A stretch of 64,000 nt of DNA, from positions 930,001 to 994,000 of the forward strand of contig OZ076416.1 of NCBI GenBank assembly GCA_964187785.1, in the 5' to 3' direction. The notes beneath the pieces were generated by a model. That model was not told the DNA's origin. It did no database searches and saw only the letters and a list, made by a program, of their open reading frames with translations. Position numbers and translations under genes: made by a program. How positions within the stretch are numbered: the stretch's first letter is position 1; each line of letters opens with the position of its first letter. Positions 20,158 through 58,699 of this stretch are shown in pieces. The stretch is from Amphiscolops sp. MND2022. Taxonomy: Eukaryota.

Positions 20158-20885
20158 TGTAACGGCACCCTATGACCGACAAAATTTTCGAAGTTTGACG
20201 ATTTTCTGAAAATTTCGTTCAAAAGTGACGTGGCCCTCAAACATGAATTCACGAGGTACCAGTCCCGCAAAATCGTAAAGAGCGTGGACAAGCAAAGCCC
20301 CCGAGGCGAAAAAAAAACGACACGGACGGTAAAAGAAGCGTGTAAAACGTCACAGAACCGAGAAATCAGAAGCCCATGCGCTAATTTCCACGGTGCCCAT
20401 CGTAAATCAAACGGAACCAGCATGTCCGAGTGATTGCAGCGCCCGGACCCAGGGTTGCGCCAGACCCGAGAACCAGTGCCATGCCGCCTAGAGTGATTTT
20501 AGATTGGCCAAACTGGATTTTCATGCTTTTTTAATGTGTTCATTGATTTGTTTGATGAATTTTTTACTCGAGAGCTACCTTTGTTAATGTTGATGTCATT
20601 TACGAAGGATTTCCATCTGGACCATTTAATTCAGTTCTATGCAACTTAACCCTATTTTTACAGGCTATTTACACAGTGGAAAAAGCGTATTTCATGTGAC
20701 TAGTAGTAGTTACAGACCGGAATCGGTCAGAAAGCATCCATAAAAACGGTTCTTCCTTCTCGGGACCGGCATTCCCTAGGAGGACAAAATGAACTGGAAT
20801 CATGGCGATTAGTCCTGGATCATTACCCATGGCTTCAGTTCCTCCACCCTGCGTAGCGAACAAACGCTAAGCGCTTTTCGTTACA
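20158..20885 (+). repeat. 5' LTR of element B (728 bp)
   Basis: Direct repeat of 45620-46354 with TG...CA ends. Confidence 0.95.
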
Positions 20886-20901
20886 TAGGAACATCATTTT
20901 T

Positions 20902-20918
20902 TGGCGACCACAGGGGGA
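20902..20918 (+). promoter_or_regulatory. Primer binding site of element B, probably tRNA-Arg type
   Basis: TGGCGACCACAGGGGGA lies 16 nt after the LTR. TGGCGACCAC is complementary to the GUGGUCGCCA end of a metazoan tRNA-Arg as I recall it; host tRNA set not checked. Confidence 0.65.
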
Positions 20919-23284: not shown

Positions 23285-26000
23285 ATGATTTGGGCGGGTG
23301 TAGCAACTGTAGTCCGACTGTTCACGCGTAGCACGGATTAAAGTAGCGAACCTAGTACGTCTGACGCTACCGATCCGAGCGAACTGCAAGAGATAAGCTC
23401 GACCCAACGCGAAAGCTCAGATACTATTAGTCAGGTGAGTCTGATAGAATGGCCACCCACGAAATCATTATAGACTGGTTCCTCCTTGTCAGAAGCAATG
23501 AGTGACAGTGTTACTGCCGGCGAGAAGCGCAGCAACGGCAAGAAGAGCAGAATGCTATGGCCTTAAACTCACCCCTATCGGAAGAACTTATCCGCACAGG
23601 ACAGTGGATCCAAGACAACAAAGGCGAGTTGGCATCACCTCAAACAGCTGGGTTGTGGCCCAACTCCAACCAAACGGCAGCGGAGGAGACCTCTGTACGC
23701 GCTGGGTGCTCAGGAACACCCAAGAACAACGACATCCCAGCTAGTAAAGATACCGACGCAATCTTGGAAGGCATGACTTATGTCGGTGGGCTGAACTATG
23801 CAAAGTATCGTCTGGAGTCTTGTCGAGCGAAAACCTCCGACAAGCAAAGAGCACGTCCCCCAACATTGTGTGTACAAGATGCAAGCGGAAGCTGAAGCCC
23901 AACGAGCTCTAGCACGTCTGGCCGACACTAGTGCCGAATGCAATGAACAGCACAAGGTCATGACTGCAGAATTGGAAGCCCTGCGTAAAAGGTAGCCTGA
24001 GGAGCGCGACCCAGCAGACCACAGTGCAAGCTGCGAAAGTGGACGCCATGGGCTATCGTCTGGAGTAGATGAAGGACTTCTTTCTCCACCGCGCACTCCG
24101 CGTGGAAGCAAGACTGGCTGAACTCAGTGACCAGATACGTACTCAAAGTGGTGCTGTTTCTCACACAAGAACTCCAGAGGTAGAGCAAATCGAAGTTGCC
24201 GAACCTATTGAGTCCACGAGTAAGATGGTGCCTATGCGCACCCCTAACCCGTCAATAACACTAACAACAAGCCCCAAAACGCAGCCCAAAGTGGTCATAT
24301 TGCCACCGATAAACAAGAGAGCTACAAAAGTGCACGTGTGCACGCCCAACCCACTCAGCGATATACCAATGCCATCGATGACGTCGCTGACCCGAACCCG
24401 GGATCAGGGAGTAGACCCAATGCCGATCACGTCGTCGACCTTTGACCTGGCTGACACAAGAGCAACTGCTAGCTGACGCACTAGCAGCACAAACGATGAA
24501 GCCTACGTTACCGCCAGGATGAGAACTGTTGGGACCAATTCAATGTTCTTGACCGCGAGCGAAGGAATGCTCACAGGCAAGCCTCGCGCCAGCAGTACTC
24601 GCAAGAAAGACAACGCGAATGGTGCACTATCCGTGCAAGCGACTAGAGGCAGCCAAGACAATTCTCCAGCCCCTAGTGAGGGAGAGGACGTGATATCCCC
24701 AGAGCAGCTGCGATTCACCGCCGCCATTTCAAAGGCAATGTCCAAAGAAATGGCCCCTCTGCTGGCTGGACGTGACCAAACTCAGGCTAGGCCTAGCGTC
24801 TATAGAGGATCCAAGGAAGGTTCCATTGATGGTTGTATCCTCGTGATGCGACGTTATTTACAGCGTACGCAAGCCAAGGCAACTCCTGACGATGAAGCCT
24901 GGAGCATTATCGGACACCTGGAAGGTGAGGCTTGCAATTACATCATCAATAAAGCCGAGTCTGAAAGGCATACCCCCGAAAAGTATTCGAATTGCTGGCT
25001 AGTCGATTTGGGACTGGAGGCAACCGCATGCAAAGGCGCCAAGCCTTCACTACCCGGCAGCAATCCGATAGAGAAGATTGGATGCAATATTTGGACGCTA
25101 TGGAGGGGCTTCGAAGCCAAGGTTTTCCCGAAGAGCCCGATACAACCAAGCGTTACGAGATCCACCAGCGCTTCATTGAGGGCATTCGTGATCCCGTCTT
25201 ACGAAGGGAATTGTCCATCATTTATGCATCCTAGACCACTGTCAGCGAACCTCCCAAAGTAGAATCCTTGCGATATACGACCCGACAATTGCAGCCTACT
25301 AGATCCAAGTCTGCATCGTATGACCCCAGGTATGCCATGAGATAAAGGCCTCATCCCTTTGCACCATCACCACCCAACAAGATGGTGTTTCCTCGAGGGG
25401 TTCTACCACCCCCTCCTGCTAATAACGCCCCAACAAATCCGGTGGTAGCACCACCTGTCGCACGCCTTCCACTAAGCGCTTGTTTCAACTGTGGTCTGAC
25501 TGGCCACTTCGCTCGAAATTGCCCCCATCGCGACCAGGCTTGCAAACCTGCAGCTGCGCCAGAACCAGAAGGAGTAAAAACAACTGCTGAAGAAGTGACC
25601 GATGGAATTCTGGATAACTATCCTGGAATTCGCCAATGCGCTCACTGTGGGATATTTGACCATGTTGATTCACCGTGCACTGGAAATCTTGTGATTCCAA
25701 ATCAAGAACTTGCTCACAATCCCTGGGCAGAGGTAGAGTCGGCCGGGGTCGCTGCCCAAACAGTGCCACCAGAGGATGACCGTGTGCTAATGCTACACCC
25801 AGCGGAACCACCCGCGTTCTACACCCCACTGACTATCACCTGCGGTACCAAGCAAGTCCAAATCTGCCTAGAACCAACCACGTTCGACCCTCAGGGACGA
25901 ACGTTGATCTCTATTCACCTGATGTTGGCTGCAGAACAATTGCGTCGACCAACATTAACATCAGCCAAACTTTGGGTTGAACTACAAGCCCTGTACAAGC
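23285..26000 (+). pseudogene. gag: Gag of element B (fragmented)
   Basis: Capsid-like ARPSVYRGSKEGSIDG...RQQSDREDWMQYL. Knuckles CFNCGLTGHFARNC and CAHCGIFDHVDSPC. Start at 23285 and the end coordinate are approximate. Confidence 0.8.
23432..23440 (+). promoter_or_regulatory. Candidate major splice donor near the gag start of element B
   Basis: CAG|GTGAGT consensus donor, phase 0 relative to ATG 23285. Confidence 0.5.
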
Positions 26001-26199
26001 GCGTGGAAATACACCGCCCCAAGGAGTGGGATGCCCCAGGGGATTCCGACACTCTCACAACCTATTCTCCCGTGCCTATCTGCGCGACTATGGATGGAGT
26101 AGATGTGAGGTTTGAAGCCTGCGTAGTGGTAGACGTCTTTCCTCCCGGAACCTGCTTGGGCGCGCAGGAACTCAAGTGTTACAACATAAATCATCAAGA

Positions 26200-29100
26200 A
26201 CCTACTGGTGAGGCACGGATAGACGAGCGCTCCTCACTCCACTCGTAGTCTGCTTTCTCGTGCCCCAGGCGGCACCAATCCCTCTGCGAGGACTCGTTGA
26301 CACAGGGTCTGGCGTATCTATCCTAACCTTCTCAGCTTTCAACCGTACAGCCGCTCAAACAGTCACTGTACTGAAACCGTACCAAATTGACTTGTATGCC
26401 GCCAACGGCAAAACAATCAAAACCTTTGGGTTGGCAGAACAAATCCGCTTCCAGTTAGGAGGCTACGAATTTGAAACCAACTTCGTCGTGGTGGATGATG
26501 CCCTGGGCGTGGAGGACTTCCTGCTAGGACGTAACTTCCTCCGAACCTACCAAGTGCTCGTGAATCTAACCTCCATGAAGATTGTGGTCCGCGCGCCAGT
26601 GAAACCTGTTTGGCATCATGCACATACACAGGTAGGTGATGCTTCCGTAGCCACTCCCGTCGCTTTAGACAGCGATTTGGTTCTACAACCATTCGAACGA
26701 ACGGTGATCAAAGCCAAATTGGTCACCAGTGATCTTTAACCGTTGATATTCCAAAATGTGATATTAAATGCGGCAATAGCTGATATACCGCTGCAAAACA
26801 TTGTGTTTTTAGAGGACAGCGTTGCCACTGTCAGTGAAGCAGGCCATGTTTTTGTCAGCTTGCTAAACTTGACCAGTAACCCACAACGGATACGAAGAGG
26901 AACCCAACTGGGCAACGTAGTTCCCGTATCACTGGTCTATCGGGCAATCCCACAACAGTCTACACCTCAACCCACCCAACGAACTAAGGTCGATAATGAC
27001 CAATTTGCGTTTGTTAACAAGATTTATGAAGAGATGAATTACGATACTAATTCACAATTACCTTCTTCTTCTGAATTCGAGTTTTTGTCCTCAACAGATC
27101 CCACCGAGGAAGGTCTTTCAGAACGCGGGGTACGTAAGCGTACGGATCCCGAACTCATGACTCCAGTACAGGGACCTGAGTCACAGCTTAAAGAGGTCCA
27201 GAACCTATGGGGTCCCAAAGCCAGCGCCTCACTAGAAAACATTTTAACCGAATTTGACGATTTGTTCATGAAACACAAGCTGATGTTGGTCGATGCACCA
27301 AAGCCAAACATCCCGTTGAAATAGAACCAGGTGCAGTACCCCACCGTGAGGGTGCAAGACGCATAACCCCGAAAAAGCAGAACGTTCCAATCAGGAGGTA
27401 CGTAATTTGCTCGCATTGGGCATGATTCAGCCCTCCCTGTCACTTTGGGCGAGCGGGATAGTCATGGTCAAGAAAAAGAATGGCGAGTTACGCTTTTGTT
27501 GTGACTTCCGCCCTTTGAATGAAGTTACCGTCAAAGATGCGTATCCATTGCCTCGGATAGAGGAAAGCATCGCCAGGCTGGGCAAGGCTAAGATCTACAC
27601 CAGTATAGATCTAGCTTGGGCTTTCTGGCAAACCCCTGTCCGAAAGGCCGACCGGTAAAAAACTGCCTTCGCCTGCGAGCTAGGATTGTTTGAATGGCGA
27701 CGCATGCCCTTTGGGATGTGCAATGCCTCCGCCACCTTCCAAAGAACGATGGCCCGGGCGCTACGCAAGATCGTGAATCGTGAAGGTAGCATGGTGATGG
27801 CCTACATCGATGCCATTGTTATCGCCACAGAAACAGTTGAGGGTCACATGGTACGTCTTCGTGAAGTTTTTGAATGTTTGCGTGAAGCTGGCTTCAAAAT
27901 GAGAGTTGCTAAATGCGACTTCATGAAGTCTGAGATCAAATACTTTGGTCGCGTAGTGTCAGCAGAAGGAATAGAACCCGATCTCAAAGCTACGTGACTG
28001 GGAATTTCCGCGTACCAAAACAGAGATACAAAACTTCCTAGGCTTTACCAACTACTACCGCGAATTTATTCCTTGGCACGCCAAACTGGTGGCTCCCTTG
28101 CATGCGATCACCGGCATCAAAGCCACTTTTGCCTGGGGATCTGAACAGCAATTGGCTTTCAACGAAATAAAAAAAGCACTCATCGATGCCACCGCTCTTG
28201 CGCAACCGGATTCCGAAGGAGAATTTGTGCAGGATACTGATGCCAGTGCTGTCGCAATTTTAGGCATTCTTCATCAGTGGCAAGGCCCACCGGGAGAAAG
28301 GCGCCTACGCCCCATTGTGTATGGCAGCAAGAAGCTTACTGCCACCCAAGCCAAATACGGAGCACCGAAGCTAGAATTGTACGCGACATATCTTTTCATT
28401 ATCAAAAACCACAGCTACTTGTCTCCACGAAAGTTCACATTGAGAGTGGATAATCAAGCATTTTCATGGCTAAAAACGTACTCCACGGATCAAGCTCTCA
28501 TTGGTAGGTGAATCAAGGCATTGGAAAAATACCATTTCCGTGTCGAACATCGACCACGAACACAACATCGCAATGCCGATGGTTTGTCCATACGCACCAA
28601 TGATTGACGACGGAGAGAACGACAGCTTGAAAAACTACCACCAGTTGCCGAACGTTGGAATTTCCTATCCCAAGATAAGTAGGAACGGCTCCCCACCGCA
28701 CCTTGGTTTGATCAGCAAGGACGGTTGATTCCCAATCATCCCGAGTTACCGATACACTTGAAAAATCTACAACCAAACCCCCCTGATCTGGTTCAACGCG
28801 TGATTCGTCGCTCAAAACGAGCAAAGAGACGAGCTAAACGGAACGAAGCCTTACACAGTCCACTACCCTCACCGCCACCTCCTATTCTACACGCCCACGA
28901 GGTTTTCCATCCCGATTACCCGGAGGATTGGATAGATGTCACTGAAGAAGCCAGACATGATTACTTACTACCCACGCACGCAACCAATATTGCCTCACGA
29001 ACCACCTATGACTTGGCCAACACCGAAGGCGCGGCACTACAAAAAGAGCTTACTCACATCAAGCAGGCAGTAATGGCTATTCGCAGTGTGAATACTGAGC

Positions 29101-32100
29101 TCCAGGAACATACCCACACTGTCAATGGGATCAAGGACCTGGTGCTAGCTCAAAACAGAGACGTTCATGTCCTAGCGCTCAAAAAGTTGGTCCATGGGGA
29201 AGGCATAAGTCAAGACATCTTTCCTGAAGATGTACGTACATTTGCCCGCAACTTCTTCAAACAAAAGAAGGAGTTACTGTTCTTGAACTCGAATGGTTTC
29301 CTCTGTGTAAAATACCCGCCTTCACAGCGTCCGCTCCACGAGCGACCCGGCTTGGTTGTAATGCCTCAGTTTTACCGACACGAGATCCTTTTTCGGAATC
29401 CTAGTCATAATTGATCACTTTTTAAATTTCGCCGAAGCCATCCCATGCAGTCATAACGAGTATGACGACATTACCACTTCCCGAGTATTGCTTCAGAAGT
29501 GGTTCGCTCGTCATGGTACACCCATCCGGATGCAATTGGACAATGCTCCGAATCTAACGGCTGAAGTCTCCAATGAGTTTATGAAGGCCTCTCAGGTCAC
29601 CAAGGTAACCTCCACAGCTGGCCATCCACGTACGCAAGGTTTAGTGGAACGCCAAAACCCTACTTTGCTCACATTGTTACGTGTTTTCTGCTCGCGTCGA
29701 ATGCGCGACTGGGACCGGCATCTGGATGAGGTCCTTGGTGCTTACAATTCTACACGCCATGCAACCACAGGCTTCTCACCCTACATGTTAACCAGAGGTA
29801 CAGAAAAGGCAATACCTCTCACATATTTGTACCCTGAGTTTGCCACCCAGCCTTTTCCTACACACGACGCGTATGTAGACCATGTGTTGGCGCGCCAACA
29901 GGAAACTCATGATCTGGTGCGTAAGACACACACCAAGCTCAGCTGCGGCAGAAGCTTAAAAATGACCGCGCAATAAGGGTCAAAGCCTACGCGAAAGGCG
30001 ATTTGGTTTGGGTTTTCTGTCGGTATGTTCCCCAAAAGGGTTCCCCCAAACTAATGCGTGGTGCACACCCTGCAAGATGGACGTGTTAACATACTCGACA
30101 CAGACCAAAAGGTCCACTTTGAGTGCCGCAAACCGCATAATAGTGGCCCCCTTGAATTCGTCGCCACTCCTCTTGACGCCGGCGACGTAGCCGTGGTCAT
30201 GGACCGGGAGCCTGAACACTCTATAGAACCCATTAATGATGACTGTTCTAAACTTTCCTATAAATCTAAGCAACTACTTTCAGAGGCTTCGAATGCTTCG
30301 TTACCTTCTCGTCAGCGTCACTTGATGGATACGCGACTGCGCACAAAGCTGCGCGCCGGAGGAACCTGCCAGCATTACCAACAATTCGACTACTCCACAT
30401 CCGACACAGACAAAAAGACGCATGACGAGATGCTTCCCATTCCCACCTACTCACCACAACAAATTCAAACCCAACCCCATCCTGAAGCAATCACCGACCC
30501 GTTGGCACATGGCTTGTTTTCAGATGAATCAATGCTCAGCTGCCTCCCGCAACTGTTTTCCGATCATGAGCCAAAGCGCTTCCCTTCACCACACATTTCA
30601 CAGTCAAGTAAAACTCCGGAGCTATCCCCAATGGGTAACTCTGCTCCGTTGCTGACTCAACCCTCCTTGACCGACTACCTCAGCAACAATCCTCTTTGGC
30701 CGAATCATGCCAAAGATTCCACTTCGCCTTCCCGTCCATCTCCACCTTCAGAATCTTTATCCTCGGCCAAGTCACCACAACCTCCACCCACCGCTCTTTC
30801 TATCAAAAGGGGGAGACCTCGGAAGAAAACCCATCAGCAAAAAACCAAGGGCAAAATAGTGCCCAAAGCACGAAAACTAAAACCGGACACCCAAACGGAG
30901 TCTCAGAACCGATACCAACTGAGACACAAACGACAGCCCAGATACAAATGTGGCACATGTGGCCTACGCGATTGCGTGCGCGTGTTGGCAATGAATGAAA
31001 AACGGGATGTTCCCACTGGAGCCCGGGTAGCCCCCCGGGAGGGTCGGCAACATACCGAACTAGTTCATCGCATCATCGTACGAGCAGAAAACACCTTCTT
31101 TGGGGTGGAACGAACTGAAAAATACTCAGTCGAGACAATTTTGCAACGAATCGCTGTACCGGGCGTTGCAAAAGCACCATGCCCCCAGTTCAAAGAATAG
31201 ACCGGCGATGGCAAGGGCTTAGAGTTCACGTTAGCCACTGTGGTACCTTCCAGCATTGTGTTCGGACCATTTAATTTTGAAAGAGAACCGGTGCAAATGG
31301 CCAGGTGCATCACTGCTGACCTATTACTTGATCGGTATGGAGTGGAAGTGGAACCAGGCGGTGTCTACAGCCCAGCCCCATACTGGTGGCTCATGGTAAC
31401 CGCTTCCCGCGTTGACGCGTTAGTGGATCCGCAACATTTGCTACAATGCTTAGAAAGTCTCAGGACCTCCACAACAGAAAACCTGATCCTTGTTTCCACT
31501 TGATAGATTGGTATCGAGGCAAGGTGAAGTTCCGTTGGTAATTTGAGTTGATCATCACGTGTTTCACTGACTATCCGCGAATCCGTTTGTTGGAGGAAGG
31601 AATCCATACTTTTGAGGAACCCCTACAAGTCAAAGCAGCGATAAGCACGCTGGACACCTGGGTTCGAGCGAACGTAGACAACCAAGCACTACCACGCTCT
31701 GTATGGCAGGATCTAGCTGAGATACAAGGTCGTACACCAGGTGTGTGTATTCTCGAGGACAATGAACCTGGTCGAGAAATAGTGTATCCAGGTAATCTGC
31801 CTCCTGACGCAGTACAATATATCTCATACGATACCACTGTTTTTTTACAAGCCGAAGGACACCTTGCCTTGACATGTCCAGCGGACTTGGAAACGAGTTC
31901 GGCAGCAACACGGTACATCTTGCAGGAATGCAGCAAAGAGCAAGTGTTCACATTACGCCCGCAAGTCGCAAAAGTACCTACTCTGACCCCCACGATTACC
32001 AGTAAACCCAACGAAACAATACACCTACTGATCACACGCGCAATTCAGCGTGCGCCGTTAAAAGCTGATGACTTCCTACTATGCTTGAGGAAGTTGGTGG

Positions 32101-32309
32101 CATGGTTAGAGGATGAGGGAATTTCTCAGATCCACTTCACCATACTGGACCCTGAAAGACCAGTATTTTCACTAACTAACCTGTATCGGGTGATAATGGA
32201 CTTGTTCGTAGACACGAACATACACGTAGTACTGCACAACCGCGTGTACGTGTCTATTCTAGGCAATGAAGTGGGTGTTAGACCACCTTGTTGCCATCTC
32301 CCAAACTAA
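26200..32309 (+). pseudogene. pol: Pol of element B: PR, RT, RNase H, INT (HHCC region deleted), long C-terminal extension
   Basis: LVDTGSGVS. RFCCDFRPLN, YTSIDL, MPFGMCNA, YIDAIV. QDTDAS, KLEL, RVDNQA. MQLDNAPN, LVERQN. Extension continues to the stop at 32309. Confidence 0.93.
31260..32250 (+). other. Two tandem degenerate macrodomain-like units at the Pol C-terminus of element B
   Basis: MARCITADL..EPGGVY..WLMVT..LLQCLESL and LALTCPADL..RPQVAKV..IHLLITR..LLCLRKL..DLFVDTNIHVVLH follow the TARG1/Poa1p macro pattern in order and spacing. Alignment by eye. Confidence 0.65.
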
Positions 32310-32526: not shown

Positions 32527-32536
32527 CCTCTTTTAG
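32527..32536 (+). promoter_or_regulatory. Candidate splice acceptor in front of ORF2
   Basis: CCTCTTTTAG lies exactly 12 nt (4 in-frame codons) before the ORF2 ATG. The same geometry occurs at 58712 and 60057 in element C. Confidence 0.65.
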
Positions 32537-32548
32537 ACCCATGATAAG

Positions 32549-34262
32549 ATGACATACCATCACACGGCCTCTGCAGCTACGCCTGCCCAACCCCAACCCC
32601 AACCCAATCAAAACGCTGTTCGAACTCAGCGAGTTAATCAAGTGCAGTTCATTGAGGAGAGACTGCGCAACGGCATTTCAACGGCAGCTGTGGCCGGGAT
32701 CACTGCTCTCCTAGCACAGTTAGAGACACAGCCCACCCTACCCTGTTGAGCTGTATCCATAGTAGCCGATGTGGCAGGGTACAAGGGTACCACGACCTGT
32801 CGAAATGGAGTATGGGATGGTTATGACCTAACCCACCCTTTCCGAGACGACAGATTTACTGCAGTGAGAGGCCTCAGTGTACAAACAACCGTTGAACAAG
32901 AGGCTACTCTGCGAATTCCGCTTGCAAATGTGCCCATGCCACAACCTTTAACCCCGGCACATCTAGTGATTCAGCCTCATCCGCCGATACACCCGCCCTC
33001 GGGAACTCAGCCGATGTATTTGCCGAGTGCTCAACCAATAGCACCATCCTCAACCCAAGCAGCGCCCGATGTTAGTGCTCCCGCAGCCCATGCGCCGCAT
33101 ATGGTTCTTAGCGCCACCCCACGATTAGAGTAAGAAAGCGGCACTTCCAGAGAACAATCCATGCAGTCCTCCGCACCACCCTCCATGCGGTCAGGCGTAA
33201 CTGCACCTGACATGTCACACAGAACCCCTAGCGAATAAGCTGTAATCCAAGCATTGCAGGCAGTAGCAAATTACCCCGAATCCAGGGATTTCGTGGAAAC
33301 AGTATCTAGGCAAATGCCAGGGTTGCAGAATCTTTTGGGAACCAGAGGACAACAAGAAGATTGCCTGACTACGAGAGAAGGTCAAGGTCCAAGCACCGAT
33401 CCACTCACTCCTGGTACCAGCGCGACCAGAAACCGAGCACCCTCGCCAATACCTGGATTGTCACCCGTCTCTGATGAGGAACTTGGCCGCAAAAGGGCCT
33501 CGCTACACGGGCTGACTCAGTCGGTTGGCAACAGCGATAGACCAACGAGCCGTCCTCCGCCAGACAAGCGAAACAGTGTACTACGCTCTGTGGTGATTCA
33601 AGAACCACCAAAAGTGGGCTATCATAGAATGTCCAAACCCCAGATGACAATGAAAGAAGTAATGGAACGATATGCCCCGAGTCCCGCATCCGTGCCAGAA
33701 AGTACTGACCATTCCGTGCACTCGAGTTCCTCGAATGCAAAGTCTGGGAAGAAATTTACGGGCCCACCGTATTATCCACAATCGGATAATGTATCAGGAT
33801 CTGTGGTAACAAGAGATGCTAATCGCATCTGGCAAATCGCCCCTAAACTGAACGAGCGAAAGTACCGTGACCGCCAAAGAGTACCGCCAACTAGCACCCA
33901 TCAAGCGCAGCTGCGAAAGTTATCGATAATCGCCCATTTGTCACGAACTTTGCGCCCCTTCGACGCCAATACAGGCGAAGCAGCTTGGGAACAACGATAA
34001 ATTAGACGATTGACAACAGCTGACGACAACTATCTTTGTCCCATGCAAAACAATCTGCACGAACAATGCAACGCCAGATACTCGCTACGGCCACGTGAAA
34101 CCTGGGAAACCCACAGCCAGTACCCCAGGAACCTGAAAGCAATGAAGCCAATGTCGAAAGAGGCAATTCAGCGCACACGTTACTGCGTAATGATTGATTC
34201 AACCGTCCCATGCGACCTTCCTCTTGACAACGTCAGTCCTGAAGTACTGGTCGTAACCATGC
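32549..34262 (+). pseudogene. Extra ORF (ORF2) of element B, 5' part
   Basis: Track ORFs 32549, 32771, 33254 and 34010 are collinear with the element C ORFs 57536-58699 and 57082-57582 (QRVNQVQFIEERLR vs QRVSQAQYIEERLR; WDGYDLTHPF vs WAGYDLTHQF). Confidence 0.85.
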
Positions 34263-34808
34263 TGTTTTGGGGTAGCTCTCGAGCTATGACAGGGGAACTC
34301 AAGAAAGCGTTCAAACTAAAAAAAAATTGAAGGAACTCAAAGATAAAGTTCAAACTATTATGATTTGGGTCTTGACTCAAGACAAGAGATCTATGTTTGA
34401 GAATGTTTATTGACGGTATGAATGATAAACGAAAGAAGAGATGTGAAGATTTGAAGACTGGTTGTTGACCGGTTGTTAGGAAACGTAAATGACATTTATA
34501 GCCCGAGGGCAACAAAAATGTTTTAGCAGGTTGTTTATATACGTTTACACTATTGAGCATTTGAGCGGTGAATAAGTGATCATCAATCGATAAATATTAC
34601 AAATGAGAAAGGAGAATTTTTATTAATGTCAAATGTCAAGTAAAGTGATTGATCAAGTATTAAAGGTCAAAAAATGACCAAACAAAGAAACAAAAAAGAG
34701 CACTGTCGCAGATTCGAGCTCGCGCAGACCGATTCTAAGGCAAAGACTGATCCACTCTGCTAAGTGGACTGATAATTACTGCGATCATTGTGATGTCATG
34801 CGCCAACA
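34263..34808 (-). repeat. 3' LTR of the BEL element (546 bp)
   Basis: Direct repeat of 41677-42220. Confidence 0.95.
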
Positions 34809-34959
34809 TCCCGCCGGCCATGAAGTATCAGCTTCATTGAGTATATGGTTAGCACTCGTGCTAATACAGTTTGAAAGAATACGAATAGCTACCACTCGAT
34901 AATAACACAAATAATAAATGTCATGAGTTTGAGTTTAAAGAAGACAAAATAGAATTTTT

Positions 34960-35031
34960 GTTTTTCGGGGATTCGAACTCCAGACCTTCTGATGGGGGAA
35001 TATTGAAATCACCACTGCACCATCATCGTCC
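34960..35031 (-). ncRNA. tRNA-like Pol III unit 2 in the BEL 3' UTR
   Basis: A box TGGTGCAGTGG (35022-35012), B box GTTCGAATC (34978-34970), T-run about 20 nt downstream. Confidence 0.55.
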
Positions 35032-35246
35032 ATAAAGGGATTGGGTATACTTCGGGTAATTGAGTTGGAAGTGTGTAATTGCAGAAAAATTTAAAACATT
35101 GGCTGGCTTCTTTTATTCTTCTCTTTACACACTAAACCTCCTCCCTCGCCCCCCTCCCTTCATCCCCCCGTGAGGAAGGAAACCAGATCTGAACAAAGTT
35201 CCCTTAGGAAATTGGGAACCTACTCACCAGAGGTGAGGTAGGAGTG

Positions 35247-35335
35247 TGGGCGTGAGCAGGGCTCGAACCACCGACCTGGCGGTCATCTAATGATCTAACT
35301 GTTGCCTTAACGTTTGCCACTAAGCCACAACACGC
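35247..35335 (-). ncRNA. tRNA-like Pol III unit 1 (or SINE head) in the BEL 3' UTR
   Basis: A box TGGCTTAGTGG (35327-35317), B box GGTTCGAGC (35269-35261), ends GCGTG...CACGCCCA. Confidence 0.6.
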
Positions 35336-35361
35336 AATTTCTTTGTCATTTATGCTGCTAC

Positions 35362-38300
35362 TCATTGTGTGCATTCAACGTTTGCATTGTGGATGCCATT
35401 GTCCTTAATTGGTAGACGTCTCAGTTTGCTGACAGGTCTTGTGAATTCACCGCGCGATGTTTTCACCAATGCCACGCGAGCTAGGCCATCATGACCAAGC
35501 TTCAATTTCATCACTCGACCAATTCTCCACTGCAGTGGTGGAATGCCATCGTCTGTAATCAGCACTACGTCATCAATTGAAAGGTTTGCACGCTCTTGTC
35601 GCCATTTGCCTCGCAGCTGAAGTGATGCTACATACTCAGAAGCCCATCGCTTCCAGAATTGAGAGAGTAGCTGTTGAAGAGCGCGAAATCGATTTGCTGG
35701 ATGCCCGCGGGCATCCATCGTCTGCAAACAGGGCTGTGGGATAGCATCCAATCCGCCGCCATTGACTAGGGAGTCAGTGCGAAGATGTCATCCGGGTTAT
35801 TTGTGAGAGCGATCAAGGGACGATTGTTCAAGACTTGTTCTATTTGGCATAGAATGGTTGTCATCTCCTTGTAAGTGAGAATGGAATTGCCCATGACTCT
35901 ACTCAAGTGGTGCTTCATCGACTTCACCGCTGCTTCCCATAGTCCGTCGAAGTTGGGCGAGCGAGGAGGAATGAAGAGCCATTCAATGCTGCTGTATGAT
36001 TGTGCCCCTGGCCGAACCACTTTTTCCAATTCGTTGAGGTCACGCCTTGCACCCACGAAGTTGGTAGCGTTGTTGGACACGATTTGACTGGGGATGCCTC
36101 GTCTTGCAATGAATCGTCTTAGGGCTGCAACCATCGCATCTGACGTCAATGATGATACTGCCTCTAGATGAACTGCCTTTGAAGCAAAACATTTGCCTTT
36201 GAAGCATAAACTGCCTTTGAAGCATAAACACAGCTACGTAACCCTTGACACATTCAGTTCCGTTTTTAAATGTTAAAGATCCTGCGAAGTCGAGGCCCAC
36301 ACAAGAGAAAGCACGTTCGGGAACCTCAATGCGACTCGAAGGCAAGTCAGCCATAAACTGCTGCGTTGGACCTGAGTTGAATCGGAAGCACGTAACACAC
36401 TTCTTCATGCAAGCAGACGCCTTCTTCATAGCCTGAGTGACCCAGATTTGACGTCTTATTTCTGCCACTGTTGCTGTGGGACCACCATGAAGGGTTCGTT
36501 TGTGGGCATCGTTGATTGCAAGTGTAGCCAGTTTGCTTCGGTGTGACACCAGTAAAGGAAACCGCTGATTGTCAGTCATTCAGTACCCGTGGGCCAGTAT
36601 GCCGCCGACTCTGATGATGCCGTTGTCCATGAATGGGTAAAAGGGTGCTATTGAGCTCTTCGGGTTGATCGACTCAGCATTTGAGAGGGCTTTGAACTCG
36701 GCTTCAAAGTGTACCATCTGATCTGCTTTGACCACCGCATACAAGGCGAGAGCCATTTCCTCCCGGCCAAAGATCGTCTTGAGATCTTTCTTGAATGCTA
36801 CTTTGCAAATGCACAAGGTTCTCAATAATTTGACTAGTGAATTGAAATTCTCTAAGTCTACTAACGAATTACTGGGCGATGTTAACACTGTCAAGGTTTT
36901 GATTTCTTGGCGGGCTTCCTCCTTTGTGAGGAGAGTCTGAGGTTGTTCAGGAAATGATGATCCCAACCACGATGGCCCTTGAAACCAGAACGTCTGCTGA
37001 GCCACCAATTGCGTTGCTAGCTGTCCGCATGAGCACAGATCTGATTGGTTTTCCTCTGAGGGTACGTGAATGAATTCAGGTGTTGGGAGCATTGACTGAC
37101 TTTGGGACACACGATTTGACACAAATGTGTGCCATCGAGCTGGGTCTGCCTTGATCCATGAGAGGGCGATTATTGAGTCTGAGTACAGCACAGAGGTGTT
37201 CAATGCGTGCTTTGATTTTGATAGTGCCCCTTGACTGCTGTTGCAAGTTTGGCACCCGTGTGAACTGCCAAGAGCTCGAGTCGAGGGAGATTTGAGGGAT
37301 TGATCGGAGCCACCTTGCATTTGGAGGAGATGAGGGTTGAGGAGACGATATCATCTTTGGCTGACACCAGATAAACACAGGCACCGTATGCTTTTTCTTA
37401 GGCATCACAGAAGACCTGTAAGGATGCTTCGTCATACAATTGGGTTGGCAGCACCTTCTCTCGGGTATCTTGAGTTGTGATAGTGCGCTCATGTCATTTT
37501 TCCAGCTTGTGTATGCCCGTGACACATCATCTGGGACTGCGTCATTCCACTCATGATCCAGCTTCCAGCAGGACTGAATGATGACCTTGGCTACTACGAG
37601 AACTGGGGTTATGAGGCCAATTGGATCTAAATGCTTTGAAGCATCACTGAGTAAAGTTCGTTTTGTAATGATTGAAATATACTCACTACTACTTGCGTAC
37701 ACAAAGTGATCCTCTAGAGGATGCCACGTCAGTCCCAGTGTTTTGATTTGATGGGTTTTATCGTTGATTTCGTAAGCCTTGTCACCTTCTTGAAGGTCAT
37801 TCGAAAGGCGAGTGACGAGTTGGGGTTCATTGCTGCTCCATTTGCGTAGTGGGAGACAGTTCTTGTTGAGGGTTTCAATCAGATTGTCTTGAAGCACGCA
37901 TGCTTTCTCCAGTGTATCAGTCCCACTCAGTAAATCATCAACCCAGTTGTCGTTGAGAATCACATTTACTCTGTTCGGATTGGGTCCATGATTTTTGCCA
38001 CTCTCTTGAAGTTGAATGGTAGGAGGAGCTGGCAACACCGTACGTCACACGGGTCATACGCAGTTCTCGGATATCATCTGTCACATAGTCACGCCACAGA
38101 AGTCGATGGAAGTCACGGCCTGATTTGTCTAAAGCCACTTGTCGGTACATCTTTGCTACATCTGCCGACAATGCATATTGGTGTAGGCGAAAGCGAATGA
38201 GAATATCAAACAGATCTTCCTGCAAGCGGGGTCCAAGCAATAGGCAATCGTTCAGCGAGTTGCCATTCGGCAATTTGCTGCTAGCATCGAACACGACACG

Positions 38301-41300
38301 GAGCTTGGTCGTTGTGCTATCCTTGAAAACACAGCGATGGGGTAAGTAGTAACACAAATCCGAAGTCTGAGAAGCTTCTTCCTAGTGACCCATGTCTACA
38401 AACTCTTTGATGAAGTCACGGTACTGCTGCTTCACATCACCGTGAGCCTTGACTTTTCGTTCCAAAGCGAACAATCTCTGCCTTGCTGTGTGAAAATTGT
38501 TTGAGGGACGTGCCTCAGACTTGAAAGGGAGACGAATTGTGATGCGGCCGTCATCTGCCACCTAAGTCGTGGTATCGTAATGTTCCTCACAGTGACGATT
38601 TTCGTTAGACATCGGCTTCACTCGAGGAATCTCTTCAACTTCCCAGAAGCGAGCAAGGTCCAGTTCCACTGCAACTTGAAAGGATTGACATTGGTAGGCA
38701 CGCACTTGGGACAACACTCCAGTGACCACCCAGCCAAAGATAGACTTGCGATAGTGAAGCCCATTATCCTTCTTCCTCTCGTCCAGAAAGAGATCCTCGT
38801 ACACATCCGCGCCCAACAGCAATTGAACGGGGCCAGGTTGATGGACGTTTCTGTCTGTTAGTGCTACACTTTTCATTGACTTTTTTTGTTTTAAGTTAAT
38901 AGATTGAGAAGGTATAATACCTGCGATTGAGTTCTGTAACTCAGTGCTGTAATAGGCAATTTTTGTGGACCCACTAGAAGACTGACAGACTCCTTGGCTG
39001 CTTGTTGCCGTCCACCAATCCCAGAGATCTTCACGTCTACTGTTGAACGTGCAAGATTGAGCTTTGATGCAGCGTCTGCTGTGATGAAGGATGTTTGAGA
39101 CCCAGAGTCCAGCAAGGCTCGGAACATCAATGTCTTTCCAGTTGTGTCGTCTATGCCAACCATTGCTGTTGAGAGAAGCACAGATGGACCACTGAACGTT
39201 GCACAACTTGTCACACCACTTTGCTGCTCGACTGCACGATCAAAGTGTAGCGATGTGCGATGCCTCCCGTTGCAAGTGCGGCAGCTGAACTTGGATGGAC
39301 AGTCAGCCACAAAATGCCGCCGCAGACAATTCATGCACAGTTTGAGCTTCCTCACCACTGCCTGCTTCTCACGCGTGCCCAACTGCTTGTAGCGATCACA
39401 CTGAGAGATTGAGTGTGACCCACTGCATTCTTCCATCTGACAACTCGCTGAGTGCTCAACAGTTGAGGAGTAAGCTTCTTGATGCACCTTCTCGGGTGTT
39501 GTCTTGGGGGTAGAAACCTCAGGCTGATCACCACTGGATTCCAATGCACGACATCGTCTGCCCATGAATGTGGTTAACTCCTTGAATGTTAACACATCTG
39601 TGCCGGGATTAGCTAGTTCAAATTGCTTCCTCGACTCGGCATCCAGTTTTTCCAACGGCCAGTACGCCAATATTGCATCCCAATGATTGACAGGCAACAT
39701 CAATGCTTCTAGTGCTTGCACATGTTCGTTCGTCGACTCCAATAGCTTGCGCAGCTCAACACTCGACTCGTTCTTGACGGCTGGTAGGGCATGGATTGCC
39801 GCTAAGTGCGCCTTCACGATTGAACGCTTGTTGTTGTAGCGCTCCTTCAGCTTTCGTTTCGCGATGTCGTAATTTGCATCAGTGACCAACAGGGATGAAA
39901 CCATCTGAGCTGCATCACCCTTCATTGACAACTTGAGGTAGGATAGCTTCTCAACGTTGGTCATGTCACGTTTGCTGTCAACCAGAGTTGTGAATTGGTC
40001 CCAGAAAGAGACCCATTGTGTGTATTCACCGCTGAATGAAGGAAGGGTCAGATTGGGGAGCTTGGTCGTCAGACTGCCACTTGATGGAGCCGCCGCGCCG
40101 CTTATGCTTGGAGGCTGCATCTCCTTTATCTTGCCCTGCGATTGAATTCTGTAACTCAGTGCTGTAATAGGCAATTTTTGTGGACGCACTAGAAGACTGA
40201 CAGACTCCTTGGCTGCTTGTTGCCGTCCACCAATCCCAGAGATCTTCACGTCTACTGTTGAACGTGCAAGATTGAGCTTTGATGCAGCGTCTGCTGTGAT
40301 GAAGGATGTTTGAGACCCAGAGTCCAGCAAGGCTCGGAACATCAATGTCTTTCCAGTTGTGTCGTCTATGCCAACCATTGCTGTTGAGAGAAGCACAGAT
40401 GGACCACTGAACGTTGCACCACTTGTCACACCACTTTGCTGCTCGACTGCACGATCAAAGTGTAGCGATGTGCGATGCCTCCCGTTGCAAGTGCGGCAGC
40501 TGAACTTGGATGGACAGTCAGCCACAAAATGCCGCCCCAGACAATTCATGCACAGTTTGAGCTTCCTCACCACTGCCTTCTTCTCACGCGTGCCCAACTG
40601 CTTGTAGCGATCACACTGAGAAATTGAGTGTGACCCACTGCATTCTTCAATCTGACAACTCGCTGAGTGCTCAACAGTTGAGGAGTAAGCTTCTTGATGC
40701 ACCTTCTCGGGTGTTGTCTTGGGGGTAGAAACCTCAGGCTGATCACCACTGGATTCCAATGCACGACATCGTCTGTCCATGAATGTGGTTAACTCCTTGA
40801 ATGTTAACACATCTGCGCCGGGATTAGCTAGTTCAAATTGCTTCCTCGACTCGGCATCGAGTTTTTCCAACGGCCAAAACGCCAATATTGCATCTCAATG
40901 ATTGACAGGCAACATCAATGCTTCTAGTGCTTGCACATGTTCGTTCGTCGACTCCAATAGCTTGCGCAGCTCAACACTCGACTCGTTCTTGACGGCTGGT
41001 AGGGCATGGATTGCCGCTAAGTGCGCCTTCACGATTGAACGCTTGTTGTTGTAGCGCTCCTTCAGCTTTCGTTTCGCGATGTCGTAATTTGCATCAGTGA
41101 CCAACAGGGATGAAACTATCTGAGCTGCATCAGCCTTCATTGACAACTTGAGGTAGGATAGCTTCTCAACGTTGGTCATGTCACGTTTGCTGTCAACCAG
41201 AGTTTTGAATTGGTCCCAGAAAGAGACCCATTGTGTGTATTCACCGCTGAATGAAGGAAGGGTCAGATTGGGGAGCTTGGTCGTCAGACTGCCACTTGAT

Positions 41301-41659
41301 GGAGCCGCCGCGCCGCTTATGCTTGGAGGCTGCATCTCCTTTATCTTGCCTTGACACCACTTCACAGCCCTTTCGGCTGCCATGAACACGTCAACCGCTT
41401 CCTCCACATCGGCTACTAGTTCATCGTCGTCATCAATGAGTTGTTGGATCTGCGAATCCAACTCTGTCAGCATCTTGCGACGATCAATCAGGAACTCCAA
41501 AGTGGCTTGAACATCCTCGAGCGGTCCACCAGCTTGTCGGATTGCTGCTGCCCGTCTTGTGAAGACGCCGCGATGAGCCCCTCTTAATCTTTTGAGCTGA
41601 GGCAACTTCATCTCACCACCAGAGCCGTCTGAACCTCCTGATCCATCTGCTGTTGACAT
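35362..41659 (-). pseudogene. BEL/Pao Gag-Pol polyprotein (disrupted)
   Basis: KLPNLTLPSFSGEY (DUF1759-like). C/H clusters CSGSHSISQC and CMNCLGRHFVADC. ALLDSGSQ. YYLPHR, KLRVVFDAS, ADVAKMYRQ, RVTYG, WVDDL. RNase H YSDS..AL.WI. INT AHKRTLHGG..CVTC, GLDFAG, SNNATNF, LWEAAVKS. C-terminal FWKRWASEY (DUF5641-like). Confidence 0.95.
38921..41350 (-). repeat. 1215-bp in-frame tandem duplication of BEL gag and protease
   Basis: Units 40136-41350 and 38921-40135. The junction reads SYRIQSQ|GKIKEMQ. 1215 nt = 405 codons. Confidence 0.95.
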
Positions 41660-41675
41660 CACGTTGAGGTCACCA
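41658..41675 (-). promoter_or_regulatory. PBS of the BEL element, tRNA-Trp type
   Basis: TGGTGACCTCAACGTGAT vs the canonical Trp PBS TGGTGACCCCGACGTGAT, 1 nt from the LTR. The gag ATG (41659) overlaps its end. Confidence 0.85.
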
Positions 41676-41676
41676 A

Positions 41677-42220
41677 TGTTTTGGGGTAGCTCTCGAGCTA
41701 TAACGGGGGAACTCAAGAAAGAGTTCAAACTAAGAAAATTGAAGGAACTCAAAGATAAAGTTCAAACTATTGTGATTTGGGTCTTGACTCAAGACAAGAG
41801 ATCTATGTTTGAGAATGTTCATTGACGGTATGAATGATAAATGAAAGAAGAGGAGTGAAGATTTGAAGACTGGTTGTTGACCAGTTGTTAGTAAACATAA
41901 ATGACATTTACAGCCCGAGGGCAACAAAAACGTTTTAGCAGGTTGTTTATATACGTTCACACTATTGAGCATTTGAGCGGTGAATAAGTGATCATCAATC
42001 GATAAATTTCATAAATGAGAAAAGAGCAATATTATTAATGTCAAATGTCAAGTAAAGTGATTGATCAAGTATTAAAGGTCAAAAAATGAACAAACAAAGA
42101 AACAAAAAGGAGCACTGTCGCAGATTCGAACTTGCGCAGACCGATTCGAAGGCAAAGACTGATCCACTGTGCTAAGTGGACTGACAATTACTGCGATCAT
42201 TGTGATGTCATGCGCCAACA
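41677..42220 (-). repeat. 5' LTR of the BEL element (544 bp)
   Basis: Followed on the minus strand by the PBS and gag. Confidence 0.95.
42104..42182 (-). ncRNA. tRNA-like Pol III unit 3 inside the BEL LTR (second copy about 34693-34770)
   Basis: A box TAGCACAGTGG (42174-42164), B box GTTCGAATC (42131-42123), T5 run 42108-42104. Confidence 0.55.
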
Positions 42221-42225
42221 CATGC

Positions 42226-44835
42226 CTTTATCGCGATTGCCCGAAATGGCAGAAGTAGCTATAGCCTTGTTCTCCCCCCAAGGTCCCCAGAGGGAACCTC
42301 CACCCAGGCGAACTATTTTTGCCAATTTGATGGACCACATGGCCTGTGAAGGTCTATTAGAGAACCTGCCTCACTTGCTGCGCAAGATGTCAACGTAGCA
42401 GCTAGAAACGAGGTGATTGAAGTATTACACCGAGTGGCGACTGCGATGGAACGTACAGCAGAATTGCTCCGCACACGCCTGGAAGTGCCGGCATTGTTTG
42501 TCTCTCCCCCTGGAATGTTATATTGGGGAGGGATTGTTCCAACAGTTCGTCTATATGTTGACGGAAATTTGCAGTGCTCGCAATGTTGAATTCTATTTGT
42601 GCGGGCCTAACTTGCGCGTCGGGAAAGCCGACTTACGCCCTGCTGCAGTCTCACTACATGCATACTTGGCAGCAATATCACGCCTGTTGCAACCTGTGGA
42701 ACGTGGTGGCAATGCCCAACTAACGTGGGATGATGCGATATACTTCGACCATGAAATGCGTCTAGGCACGCTAACCTTCGATGATACAGGGAAGCGAACT
42801 AGCTCAGAAGCAACCCTAGCAGAACGCGAGAATATGCGCAGATACAACTGGCTAGTACGCGAAGCACATCCCAACACTATCAAGGCAGACCTTGCAGCAG
42901 TCTGGGATCAGCTGAACAGATGGCCACTTAACCGTGAGGTCGAACGGACCATTTCCCAAATTCAATTCGCCGACAATACCGAAATCATCAAAATGCCATT
43001 GGGCATAAGGCACATCGTGGCCCATGAAGCCGTGACCCTCAGCAATTTGGTTCAAGCCAAGGAGGACACTTACGGAGATTGGTATAATGATCGCCTAGCC
43101 ACGGTCACCCTGGAAATGGCCGCACAGACCTTGTCTGTTTCTTTCCAGGCATAGCTGACTAGTTTTGAATTGGGTTGGCACATGGACGTCATTGCAGACG
43201 AGTTCAACCTGACCGACGGACAACTGCAAAAACTTACTGAGGTACTCAAGAAACCTCAGTGAACGAGGTGTTAGCCCTTGCGCTAGCCCTTGGGCCCACA
43301 AAGTTTGTGGCTGGTCGGTTAGCCATCGTTGTAGATTTGGTCACATCTGCGGGAGTGTTACAATTTTACACATACCTATTTTTGGCTCAATGAAAGCTAG
43401 CCAGCTTGCTCGGGTGTGGAGAAATTCCCTTCACACAAAACGGGCACAACTACACCGAGCACTTGTTCCGAATGAGAGCTTCCATACAACACTGGCTCTA
43501 TTCAACACTGATTTATGCATCAGGCTTATTTGTAGGAGTGGACCAAGCTCAATCCCTACACGATCCAGACATGCAGCTGCCTCGTGAAAATCCGGGCTTC
43601 CCAATGCCGCAACAACTGGCTGACCTGGCGCTAGACGAGGTGGAAGACATAGTTCCAGTGATAGCTCCTGTCTTAATTCCAATCTTTGGAGCTCTTGGAC
43701 AACTACGCTATCCAACCAAGCCTCTATCCCTAGCAGTGCATGTTGCAACGGAGTCCATCTTCACATACCTTCAAGTGAGCCCACCTATGAACTATGCCCA
43801 AATGATACGAGAAACATACAGTGGCGAAATGCCCCAAGCATAAACCACTGTCAAGACCGAGCAACAAGCAGAGGAAAACATGATGGGTGTTGACCGTGCC
43901 CGCTCGCGCAAAGCCGCTGTTCTACCAAGGGAATACGGTCCTATCAATTGGTACAACGCTCCTGTTGACCTGAATGGACAGTCATTCCGGTTTCCCTGGT
44001 CGTCAGATTCCATCAAGAAAGTGGTAAATTCCTGTTTACAGCTCAACCCGCATGTCCGTTTGGACTACAAGTTTAAATTCATCCAGGTGCAAAACCACTA
44101 CTGGAAAGACCCAGTGGGCTATCCTCACGCGCGCCCAATTGGACGCGGGAAAGAACTGCTGGACAGAACAACCAATTACGGCACTTAGACGTAGCCGATA
44201 TACCTAAATGGATTCACTTGGCGGCACTAGTGCGTGATCGCAACCTGTCACGTCGAATGGCCCCCTTACATTACGAGCCTGCTTGGCGCCCACAAGGACG
44301 CATGACCATGTCTGGGGATATGCCGTTGTCAATATTCGACATAGTGGACCAAGTGTTAGGCGCGGAAATGCGCGCTGAATGGGATGAGGAATGCCTCAAC
44401 CTGGAAGTCAGCAATTTTGACATATGGAAACAAGCTTGCGCACTTTGGAAGCAAGCTGGCCGGGTATCAAAGCGTGTCGCCCTAGCAGCCAACCATCGTG
44501 CTGAAGAAGAGTGCGTCGCTCGATATGCCCCACAACCGTCACAGCCTCCTACTATGGCGATGTCATTAGAACAACCATTGACGGCAGAAGCCAATCCAAA
44601 TGAAGCAGAGGTTGCAGAAGATGAAACAGCTATGCCTGTAACCCCTAGCCCTTCTGGAGAACATGCCGCAGAGCTGACTCCTAATGTAGAGCTGGTAGAG
44701 CCCATCGGTGATCTCACCATTGATACCGATGTCGAAACTGTTGTGCCTTCACCAGTCCGACGAGCGTCAGTGAGCGATGCCTCACCTCCAAGAGAAGTCT
44801 CTCCTCGAAGCAGGAACAAATCTGCTATTCAATGA
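42226..44835 (+). pseudogene. Extra ORF (ORF2) of element B, 3' part
   Basis: Removing the BEL insert rejoins VLVVTM|PLSRLPEMAEV, matching VMAMTMPLTRIPEMAEM in element C. Continues through track ORFs 42417, 43406, 43880 and 44218 with isolated stops and frameshifts. Confidence 0.85.
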
Positions 44836-45619: not shown

Positions 45620-46354
45620 TGTAACGGCACCCTATGACCGACAAAATTTTCGAAGTTTGACGATTTTCTGAAAGTTTCGTTCAAAAGTGACGTGGACCAC
45701 AAACATGAGTTCACGAGGTACCAGTCTCGCAAAAATCATAAAGAGCGTGGACAGGTAAAGCCCGCGAGGCGGAAAAAGCGACACGGACGGTAAAAGAAGC
45801 GTGTAAAACGTCACAGAATCGAGAAATCGTAAGCCCATGCGCTAATTGCCACGGTGTACATCGTAGACCAGACGGAACCAGCATGTCCGAGTGATTGCAG
45901 CGCCCGGACCCAGGGTTGTGTCAAACCCGAGAACCAGTGCCATGCCACCCTGAGTGATTTTAGATTCGTCAAACTGGATTTTCATGCCTTTTTAATGTGT
46001 TCATTGATTTGTTTGATGAATTTTTTACTCGAGAGCTACCTTTGTTAATGTTGATGTCATTTACGATGGATTTCCATCTGGACCATTTAATTCAGGTCTA
46101 TGCATCTTAACCCTATTTTTACAGGCTATTTACACAGTGGATACAAGGAAAAAGCGTAATTCATGTGACTAGTAGCAGTTACAGACCGGAATCGGTCAGA
46201 AAGCATCCTTACAGACGGTTCTCCCCTCTCGAGACCGGCATTCCCTAGGAGGACAAAATGAACTGGGATCATGGCGATTAGTCCCGGATCATTACCCATG
46301 GATTCAGTTCCTCCACCCTGCGTAGCCAACAAACGCTAAGCGTTTTTCGTTACA
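45620..46354 (+). repeat. 3' LTR of element B (735 bp)
   Basis: Direct repeat of 20158-20885, preceded by AGGGAGTGGA. Confidence 0.95.
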
Positions 46355-55250: not shown

Positions 55251-55694
55251 TGTATATGTTTTTGACACTATCTCACGGAATTGTGCCATTCTCCAACGAG
55301 ATACCTTGCTACTTTGTTAGCGAAAAACAGTGGATCAGAATGTCTGTCTGAAATACCGTGTGGCGTTCTGTGGTGGCCATCTTGAGCGCTGGGCACCACT
55401 TTTGTTGTTTTCTTGTTCCAAGTATTTTTCAAGTATTTTCTTGTTTCATAGTTTCTTGATTGCTAAGCGAGCAGCTGGGGCAGACACATGCTAAGGCCGT
55501 ACACCCAATGCAGAACAAATAATAATAACTATCAACTAAATAACTAAATAACGAAAATTGCACCTGGTGTGGTAGCACCCTGCATTTGGATAATATGAGG
55601 CAAGTAACGCTCAGGCAAAGTTTAGTTCAAAGTACTTCATTGAGATCACAGAGTTCTAGGGAGCGCGAACGCTCCCGTTTACGGCTTGATTTTC

Positions 55695-58600: not shown

Positions 58601-58699
58601 TTGCGCCTGGCTGACCCTCTGCGCGAGCGCAGTTTCCTGGGTTCTCTGTGTGCCAGCAGGCACTGGAGGAGGCATTGAGCTAGTGGGGTAAAATGCCAT
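55695..58699 (-). pseudogene. ORF2 of element C (about 1 kb internal deletion relative to B)
   Basis: Track ORFs 57536, 57082, 56524, 56087 and 55695 align to ORF2 of B. The sequence jumps from GKELASF to VSKRVAVA at about 56090. Confidence 0.85.

Follow-up and report, generated by a model that had tools for sequence, protein, structure and literature searches.

A giant third open reading frame carrying a likely pseudo-esterase of the SGNH fold in the env position of a Ty3/Gypsy clade from Amphiscolops sp.

What does a giant open reading frame (ORF) encode when it stands in the env position of a retrotransposon? The question is raised by ORF3 of element B, a dead Gypsy copy of ~26 kb (20158-46354) with a broken gag-pol followed by ORF3, found in the 1.07-Gb eukaryotic assembly of Amphiscolops sp. 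MND2022 (GCA_964187785.1). The element lies in a stretch of 64 kb (contig OZ076416.1, positions 930,001 to 994,000), hereafter the window, which is a nest of retroelements and to which the coordinates below refer. An initial annotation, made from the letters alone, had seen in ORF3 an SGNH/GDSL-esterase-like fold with impaired catalysis. Here we report that ORF3 is a real gene under strong purifying selection, that its product is probably not an envelope, and that its SGNH domain is likely a pseudo-esterase, and we weigh the roles such a protein may have.

After removal of a nested insert and one copy of its target duplication, ORF3 of element B (32549-44835) comprises 1714+2615-5 = 4324 nt, or ~1441 codons, in agreement with the ~1440 codons initially given. 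The frame had been described as bearing isolated lesions only, a description that did not hold: the 5' part contains in-frame stops at 32747, 33131, 33236 and 33998, and the 3' part displays four frame-changing indels near 42390, 42525, 43245 and 44160 (each apparent in comparison with 4 or more of 6 sister copies) and further stops. Its conservation in element C, the paralogue in the window, stood in part, as that copy is alignable but lacks residues ~928-1269 and its block I Asp is replaced by H. The two copies in the window are both dead.

Conversely, intact ORF3s of 1420-1480 codons are present in three young sister families. Of the 150 places matched in a search with a piece of element C, 52 (by hand count) lie in frames open over 1420 codons or more; in family E, 16 of 32 matches are free of internal stops, and intact frames in family F measure 1432-1450 codons. 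The four full-length sister elements examined span ~18.9-19.5 kb and have long terminal repeats (LTRs) 99.2-100% identical, the pairs compared being two in one family and one in each of two others. ORF3 was kept in all families examined and its length is constant over at least five, with 78-92% identity in the reverse transcriptase (RT) across families and ~31-50% in ORF3 between distant ones. Purifying selection was found between elements B and C, as anticipated initially (pN 0.376 and pS 0.785 over 844 aligned codons, the synonymous sites being saturated at this pS), and in three pairs of intact copies, with ratios of nonsynonymous to synonymous substitution rates (dN/dS) of 0.093, 0.115 and 0.096 for ORF3 as a whole. 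In the SGNH region of the same pairs the values were 0.067, 0.047 and 0.069, comparable to RNase H-integrase, for which the single pair tested gave 0.049. Of 1.84 billion protein representatives, 461 match ORF3 at E<=0.001, and a search with the seven most diverged ORF3 sequences returned three proteins. Two of the relatives, P0157 and P0295, reach a best identity of 30-33% among scored candidates in the Amphiscolops assembly and, because no close match was found among these, probably come from other genomes. Two ORF3 fragments, P0155 and P0335, are labelled as a bacterial metagenome bin, and are probably host DNA in that bin.

The assignment of the ORF3 core to the SGNH superfamily comes from structure prediction. 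Three structure searches were dominated by SGNH proteins, and the predicted model displays the five-stranded alpha/beta/alpha fold with blocks I, II, III and V in order, over 195 residues of a multidomain protein of ~1430 residues. The best structural match is the catalytic subunit of PAF acetylhydrolase Ib (1wab/1bwp), an active cellular enzyme with 11-13% identity, in which the aligned range takes in the N-terminal extension; model residues 23-260 align to PAF-AH 10-216, and residues 73-261 to TesA 1-179. Sequence-based methods gave no such signal: none of the 65 alignment members matched the Pfam SGNH families (PF13472/PF00657), Pfam and PDB searches by sequence and by profile yielded nothing or noise, whether made with the complete ORF3, its core, its C-terminal half or its N-terminal domain, and an ESM Atlas search with the core returned no usable match. 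Further, a helical bundle following the SGNH domain was confidently predicted and has no fold match.

The active site appears to be incomplete. In block I, Asp520 is present in 46/50 rows and Ser521 (window position 34199) in 45/50, read off the rows, so that the position of the nucleophilic Ser of active SGNH hydrolases is retained in ORF3. Provided that the aligned range ends are gap-free, Ser521 aligns with TesA 10, which we take to be the catalytic Ser, and Arg678 with TesA 157 and PAF-AH 195, presumably the catalytic His. This last position is R678 in 50 of 59 covering sequences and His in one; the Arg is invariant in the seven most diverged. Block V (ADLRP or GDLRP) had been read as DxxHP-like with His replaced by Arg; the replacement stood, but the Asp of DLRP was rejected as the catalytic acid because it lies two residues before the Arg, where a DxxH acid would lie three. 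In ZfL2-1, the spacing of D279 and H282 likewise puts the acid three residues before the base (PMC3905857). The corresponding position of ORF3 (-3 from Arg) varies among G, A, E, N, T and S. By motif register, block II reads PL[SA] or PC/H/G, the oxyanion Gly being L, C or H in most families and kept in P0291/P0295, and block III reads N-hydrophobic-hydrophobic-D, with a hydrophobic residue at the oxyanion Asn position. Block III carries His581 in 56/58 and Asp580 in 57/58 covering sequences; this His was rejected as a universal replacement base, being Asp in P0291/P0295 and Tyr in P0157, and the diverged relatives without it all retain the Arg. Judged from these residues, the impairment initially proposed is upheld by the Arg in the His position, and the SGNH domain is likely a pseudo-esterase that has lost catalysis.

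The motifs named initially were all located in the window: YCVMIDST at 34181, FANLMDH at 42318 and ADLRP at 42627, with LFISPPG at 57018 and GDLRP at 56886 in element C; VTMPLSR is present but not contiguous, the nested element sitting inside it. The ORF3 5' part holds, in order, a small conserved N-terminal domain, a P/S/T/Q-rich linker, the SGNH N-terminal extension and block I. The features are arranged as follows, PR, RH and IN denoting protease, RNase H and integrase.

20158..20885, plus strand: 5' LTR of element B, TGTAAC...GTTACA, with the CTA target duplication just before it (self-BLAST and flanks).
20902..20910, plus strand: TGGCGACCA, resembling a primer-binding site (PBS), 16 nt past the LTR end; putative PBS role.
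23506..32306, plus strand: broken gag-pol in the Gypsy order PR-RT-RH-IN.
31677..32306, plus strand: predicted degenerate TARG1/OARD1-like macrodomain at the Pol C-terminus (hhalign).
32527..32536, plus strand: splice-acceptor-like CCTCTTTTAG, ending 12 nt upstream of the ORF3 ATG; putative splicing role.
32549..34262, plus strand: ORF3 5' part (N-terminal domain, linker, SGNH extension, block I), with four in-frame stops.
34263..42220, minus strand: nested BEL/Pao-type LTR element with a 5-bp duplication (CATGC), inserted within SGNH block II.
42221..42720, plus strand: remainder of the SGNH-fold domain, frameshifted (blocks II and III, PPG turn, block V).
Within the latter, plus strand: SGNH sub-blocks MPLSR (block II), NLMDH (block III, 42318-42338), PPG turn (42497-42514) and DLRP (block V, 42630-42641).
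43150..43500 (approximate), plus strand: predicted all-helical bundle, sister residues ~800-975, holding the hydrophobic stretch noted initially; no fold match.
43649..43705, plus strand: second conserved hydrophobic segment with Pro/Gly, IVPVIAPVLIPIFGALGQL, a candidate membrane-contact helix, unconvincing as a transmembrane (TM) segment.
43706..44835, plus strand: ORF3 C-terminal conserved region and low-complexity tail, with the stop TGA at 44833-44835.
45620..46354, plus strand: 3' LTR of element B, with CTA directly after it.
55698..58699, minus strand: diverged and broken ORF3 paralogue in element C, without residues ~928-1269.

With its LTRs, putative PBS, gag, and pol ordered PR-RT-RH-IN, the element B clade is a Ty3/Gypsy LTR retrotransposon. 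The two LTRs of element B are identical at 681 of 726 positions, and gag-pol is a single frame of 3111-3204 codons in 3 of the 4 intact sister elements examined. The nested element, whose LTRs are identical at 515 of 544 positions, we take to be of BEL/Pao type from its ORF motifs and its 5-bp target duplication.

The absence of envelope features initially reported for ORF3 was reproduced. No RX[KR]R furin site was found in the 8 window segments tested, and the N-terminus is not hydrophobic, as expected without a signal peptide, in three full-length family D proteins and in P0025 of family E; signal peptide and TM calls here are hydropathy heuristics. The hydrophobic stretch noted at 43260-43390 is present but marginal (KD19 maximum 1.83), and was rejected as a TM anchor, since it corresponds to three helices of 10-11 residues in the high-confidence predicted helical bundle. 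The best 19-mers all scored >0 on an approximate Hessa scale, on which an env-like control scored -4.4. No viral fusion-protein fold was found among the structure-search matches, for models that cover ORF3 from residue 440 up to the tail and are of low confidence at residues ~976-1230. The ORF3 product is probably not an envelope.

Upstream of ORF3, a pyrimidine tract ending in TAG/CAG 12 nt before the ATG is present in families B, C, D and E, and the same kind of tract lies ~105-130 nt before the ATG in family F. Such a tract resembles the acceptor of spliced env RNAs. In the reading that we tentatively favour, and hold at somewhat under an even chance, the ORF3 product would be a cytosolic scaffold built on a dead SGNH fold, holding particles or RNA on anionic membrane surfaces. 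It would be expressed from a spliced subgenomic RNA through the acceptor just upstream of the ATG; the retained Ser and the near-invariant Arg would form a putative pocket for anions (phosphate or carboxylate); peripheral membrane contact may come from amphipathic helices around residues 960-980 and 1016-1034; and the protein would act in the assembly or targeting of particles or ribonucleoproteins (RNPs) within the cell. The precedent is the ZfL2-1 esterase, whose binding to anionic lipids and liposomes persists when its active site is mutated (PMC3905857). Lipid binding by ORF3 is suggested solely by this analogy, and RNA binding by Oskar would be an equally available precedent.

Several observations weigh against this scaffold. 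Only one of five AlphaFold models reached a pLDDT (predicted local distance difference test) of 78, the others scoring 56-64; the Foldseek/PDB search gave no match at E<=0.001 (best E 0.025); profile comparison (hhalign) of the ORF3 core with canonical esterases of the same genome detected no similarity, one of these comparisons including a wrongly cut row (L055); and the catalytic register was taken from the ends of aligned ranges. Furthermore, no splice donor was found by the simple pattern scan. The charge of the SGNH domain is close to neutral (K+R 14-27 vs D+E 15-22 in 12 correctly cut rows), which lends no support to a strongly basic membrane- or RNA-binding face and does not discriminate lipid from RNA binding. 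Finally, Oskar, the closest dead SGNH precedent, binds RNA and not lipid.

Oskar also offers the next reading, a doubtful one that we rate at roughly one chance in four, in which RNA is bound by the dead SGNH domain while RNP granules, nucleated by the long disordered linkers, bring the RNA of the element to the germline or protect it from silencing by small RNAs. The OSK domain (5a4a) is likewise a non-catalytic SGNH fold beside long flexible regions (PMC5785220, PMC10792757). However, its match to the ORF3 model is weaker than those of active esterases and reflects the shared fold only; moreover, Oskar is without the Ser that ORF3 keeps, and the ORF3 SGNH domain is not basic overall.

Transmission is the third possibility, and an unlikely one: in a hitherto undescribed Gypsy clade (18-19.5 kb), a giant pseudo-esterase scaffold would have taken the place of env, docking particles on membranes and carrying them from cell to cell, such as from soma to germline, without a TM fusogen. 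The env position and env-like acceptor are consistent with it, as is the retention of ORF3 in every family examined despite its divergence relative to RT, and env-independent transfer is known for Drosophila MDG1-group elements (bioRxiv 2025.03.14.642691). That precedent, however, uses a short TM fusogen, and the cell-to-cell movement suggested initially found no support in ORF3, which has no predicted TM segment or signal peptide, no conserved furin site and no match to a viral fusion protein. ORF3 shares with the errantivirus env and with MDG1-group sORF2 its place as a third ORF after pol, may like them be expressed from a spliced RNA, and differs from them in these features, with no fusogen fold among its structure matches.

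It is similarly improbable that ORF3 is a rewired enzyme, a non-canonical hydrolase or acyltransferase pairing the Ser with the block III His (NxxDH) or the Arg. The high conservation of Ser521, His581 and Asp580 given above would fit such an enzyme, and SGNH proteins with non-standard acid residues are known (PMC10792757); the block III His is nevertheless absent in the most diverged relatives, and neither oxyanion position is generally kept. As for ORF3 being a functionless captured passenger or a wrong fold assignment, the blank sequence searches and the dead copies in the window are set against a dN/dS of ~0.1 over the greater part of ORF3, its constant length in at least five families and the three SGNH-dominated structure searches, by which this very remote reading is largely refuted.

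As a concept, an env-position SGNH ORF3 is not new, SGNH ORFs having been described in Vesta and in Ngaro; the giant, multidomain and likely dead form appears to be. Vesta LTR retrotransposons of bdelloid rotifers, a precedent absent from the initial annotation, are retrovirus-like elements whose ORF3, in the env position, encodes an SGNH/GDSL domain, with no TM segment and a suggested membrane-related or auxiliary role (PMC5408684). According to the same source the invariant residues of Vesta ORF3 are intact and HHpred-detectable, and non-catalytic GDSL derivatives are mentioned for Athena-L elements; in contrast, the domain described here has Arg for His, escapes both Pfam and profile searches, and makes up a small part of its protein. 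The Ngaro tyrosine-recombinase (YR) retrotransposons also have an extra SGNH ORF of unproven function downstream of the core genes, but belong to another retroelement order, and their SGNH domain is recognisable by standard domain searches (bioRxiv 2021.08.05.455354). The esterase of ZfL2-1 ORF1p, with counterparts in CR1/L2, RTEX and Penelope, is a retroelement-encoded SGNH fold with catalysis-independent lipid binding; it differs in being an active S143-D279-H282 enzyme, encoded by ORF1 of a non-LTR element and accompanied by a coiled coil (PMC3905857). No sequence similarity of ORF3 to this type was detected when probed with the esterases of long interspersed nuclear elements (LINEs) from the same genome. 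The words 'esterase' and 'GDSL' are absent from the main text of a survey of env-carrying Gypsy elements (PMC13524379), and no description of a giant dead-SGNH ORF3 was found in the open-access literature.

Two further traits appear to be new, the putative Pol macrodomain and the 3-bp target duplications. The Pol C-terminus is probably a degenerate TARG1/OARD1-like macrodomain: hhalign against a macrodomain of the same genome, itself matching OARD1 at E 4e-27, gave a probability of 86.5 and E 4.6e-6 over the C-terminal 79 columns. The Atlas Macro cluster reached only 0.88, the glycine-rich ADP-ribose loops are replaced, and there was no Pfam or PDB match; the region (31677-32306) had a dN/dS of 0.25 in one pair. 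Upstream of it lie a CxxC-x-C motif and another conserved region. Macrodomain ORFs are mentioned for fish endogenous retroviruses (PMC4977317). In a third Gypsy family of this genome (L148-L150), a near-canonical TARG1 macrodomain (E 4e-27 to OARD1) follows the integrase.

An exact 3-bp target duplication flanks 10 of 13 LTR pairs of family D (L115-L143), one of the misses being a tandem arrangement and two unexplained; it is also present in single elements of B (20155-20157 / 46355-46357), E and F and in another D copy. Since Drosophila Gypsy elements prefer 4 bp (PMC3276498) and the range quoted for LTR elements is 3-6 bp (PMC10045372), 3 bp is rare for Gypsy and not unprecedented. A spacer of ~16 nt separates the 5' LTR from the PBS-like motif (20886-20910) in families B, D, E and F, and the leader upstream of gag measures ~2.2-3.3 kb in this clade.

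Elsewhere in the window, element A has two conserved antisense ORFs downstream of pol (11757-13860, minus strand), of 390-397 and ~640 codons in sisters (intact in L112:5275-6465 and 7517-9430), with nothing above cut-off in a Pfam search; the longer bears a CxxC...HxxxxxH zinc-finger-like motif and is possibly derived from a DNA transposon. Each of three LTR elements holds an internal tandem duplication (38920-41353, 1.2 kb; 3649-9895, 3.5 kb; 58486-61134, 1.3 kb), and 62-bp inverted repeats 837 nt apart at 54533-55493 resemble a miniature inverted-repeat transposable element. Elsewhere in the genome, the integrase of another Gypsy family (L075-L082, L109-L111) is extended at its end by a fused SGNH domain with canonical GDS/GxND/DxxH motifs; an env-like ORF comes next, whose product has a hydrophobic segment at the N-terminus and a TM anchor. 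Canonical SGNH esterase ORFs were also found at L083-L085; a LINE-type endonuclease ORF lies downstream of two of these, and the best PDB match of L085 is 4c1b.

SGNH domains recur in LINEs, Penelope, Ngaro and rotifer LTR elements without a demonstrated role in transposition. In ORF3 of this recently active LTR clade, the fold is selected about as strongly as the integrase and lacks the catalytic His, which suggests that the element needs binding and not hydrolysis. The same genome holds catalytically canonical versions, in LINE ORF1 and in the Gypsy integrase fusion, making a side-by-side comparison possible, and the ORF3 protein, missed by Pfam, carries an unmatched, confidently predicted helical domain. 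Should the unlikely transmission reading be true, fusogen-free transfer would constitute a third route besides Env and sORF2/FAST-like proteins.

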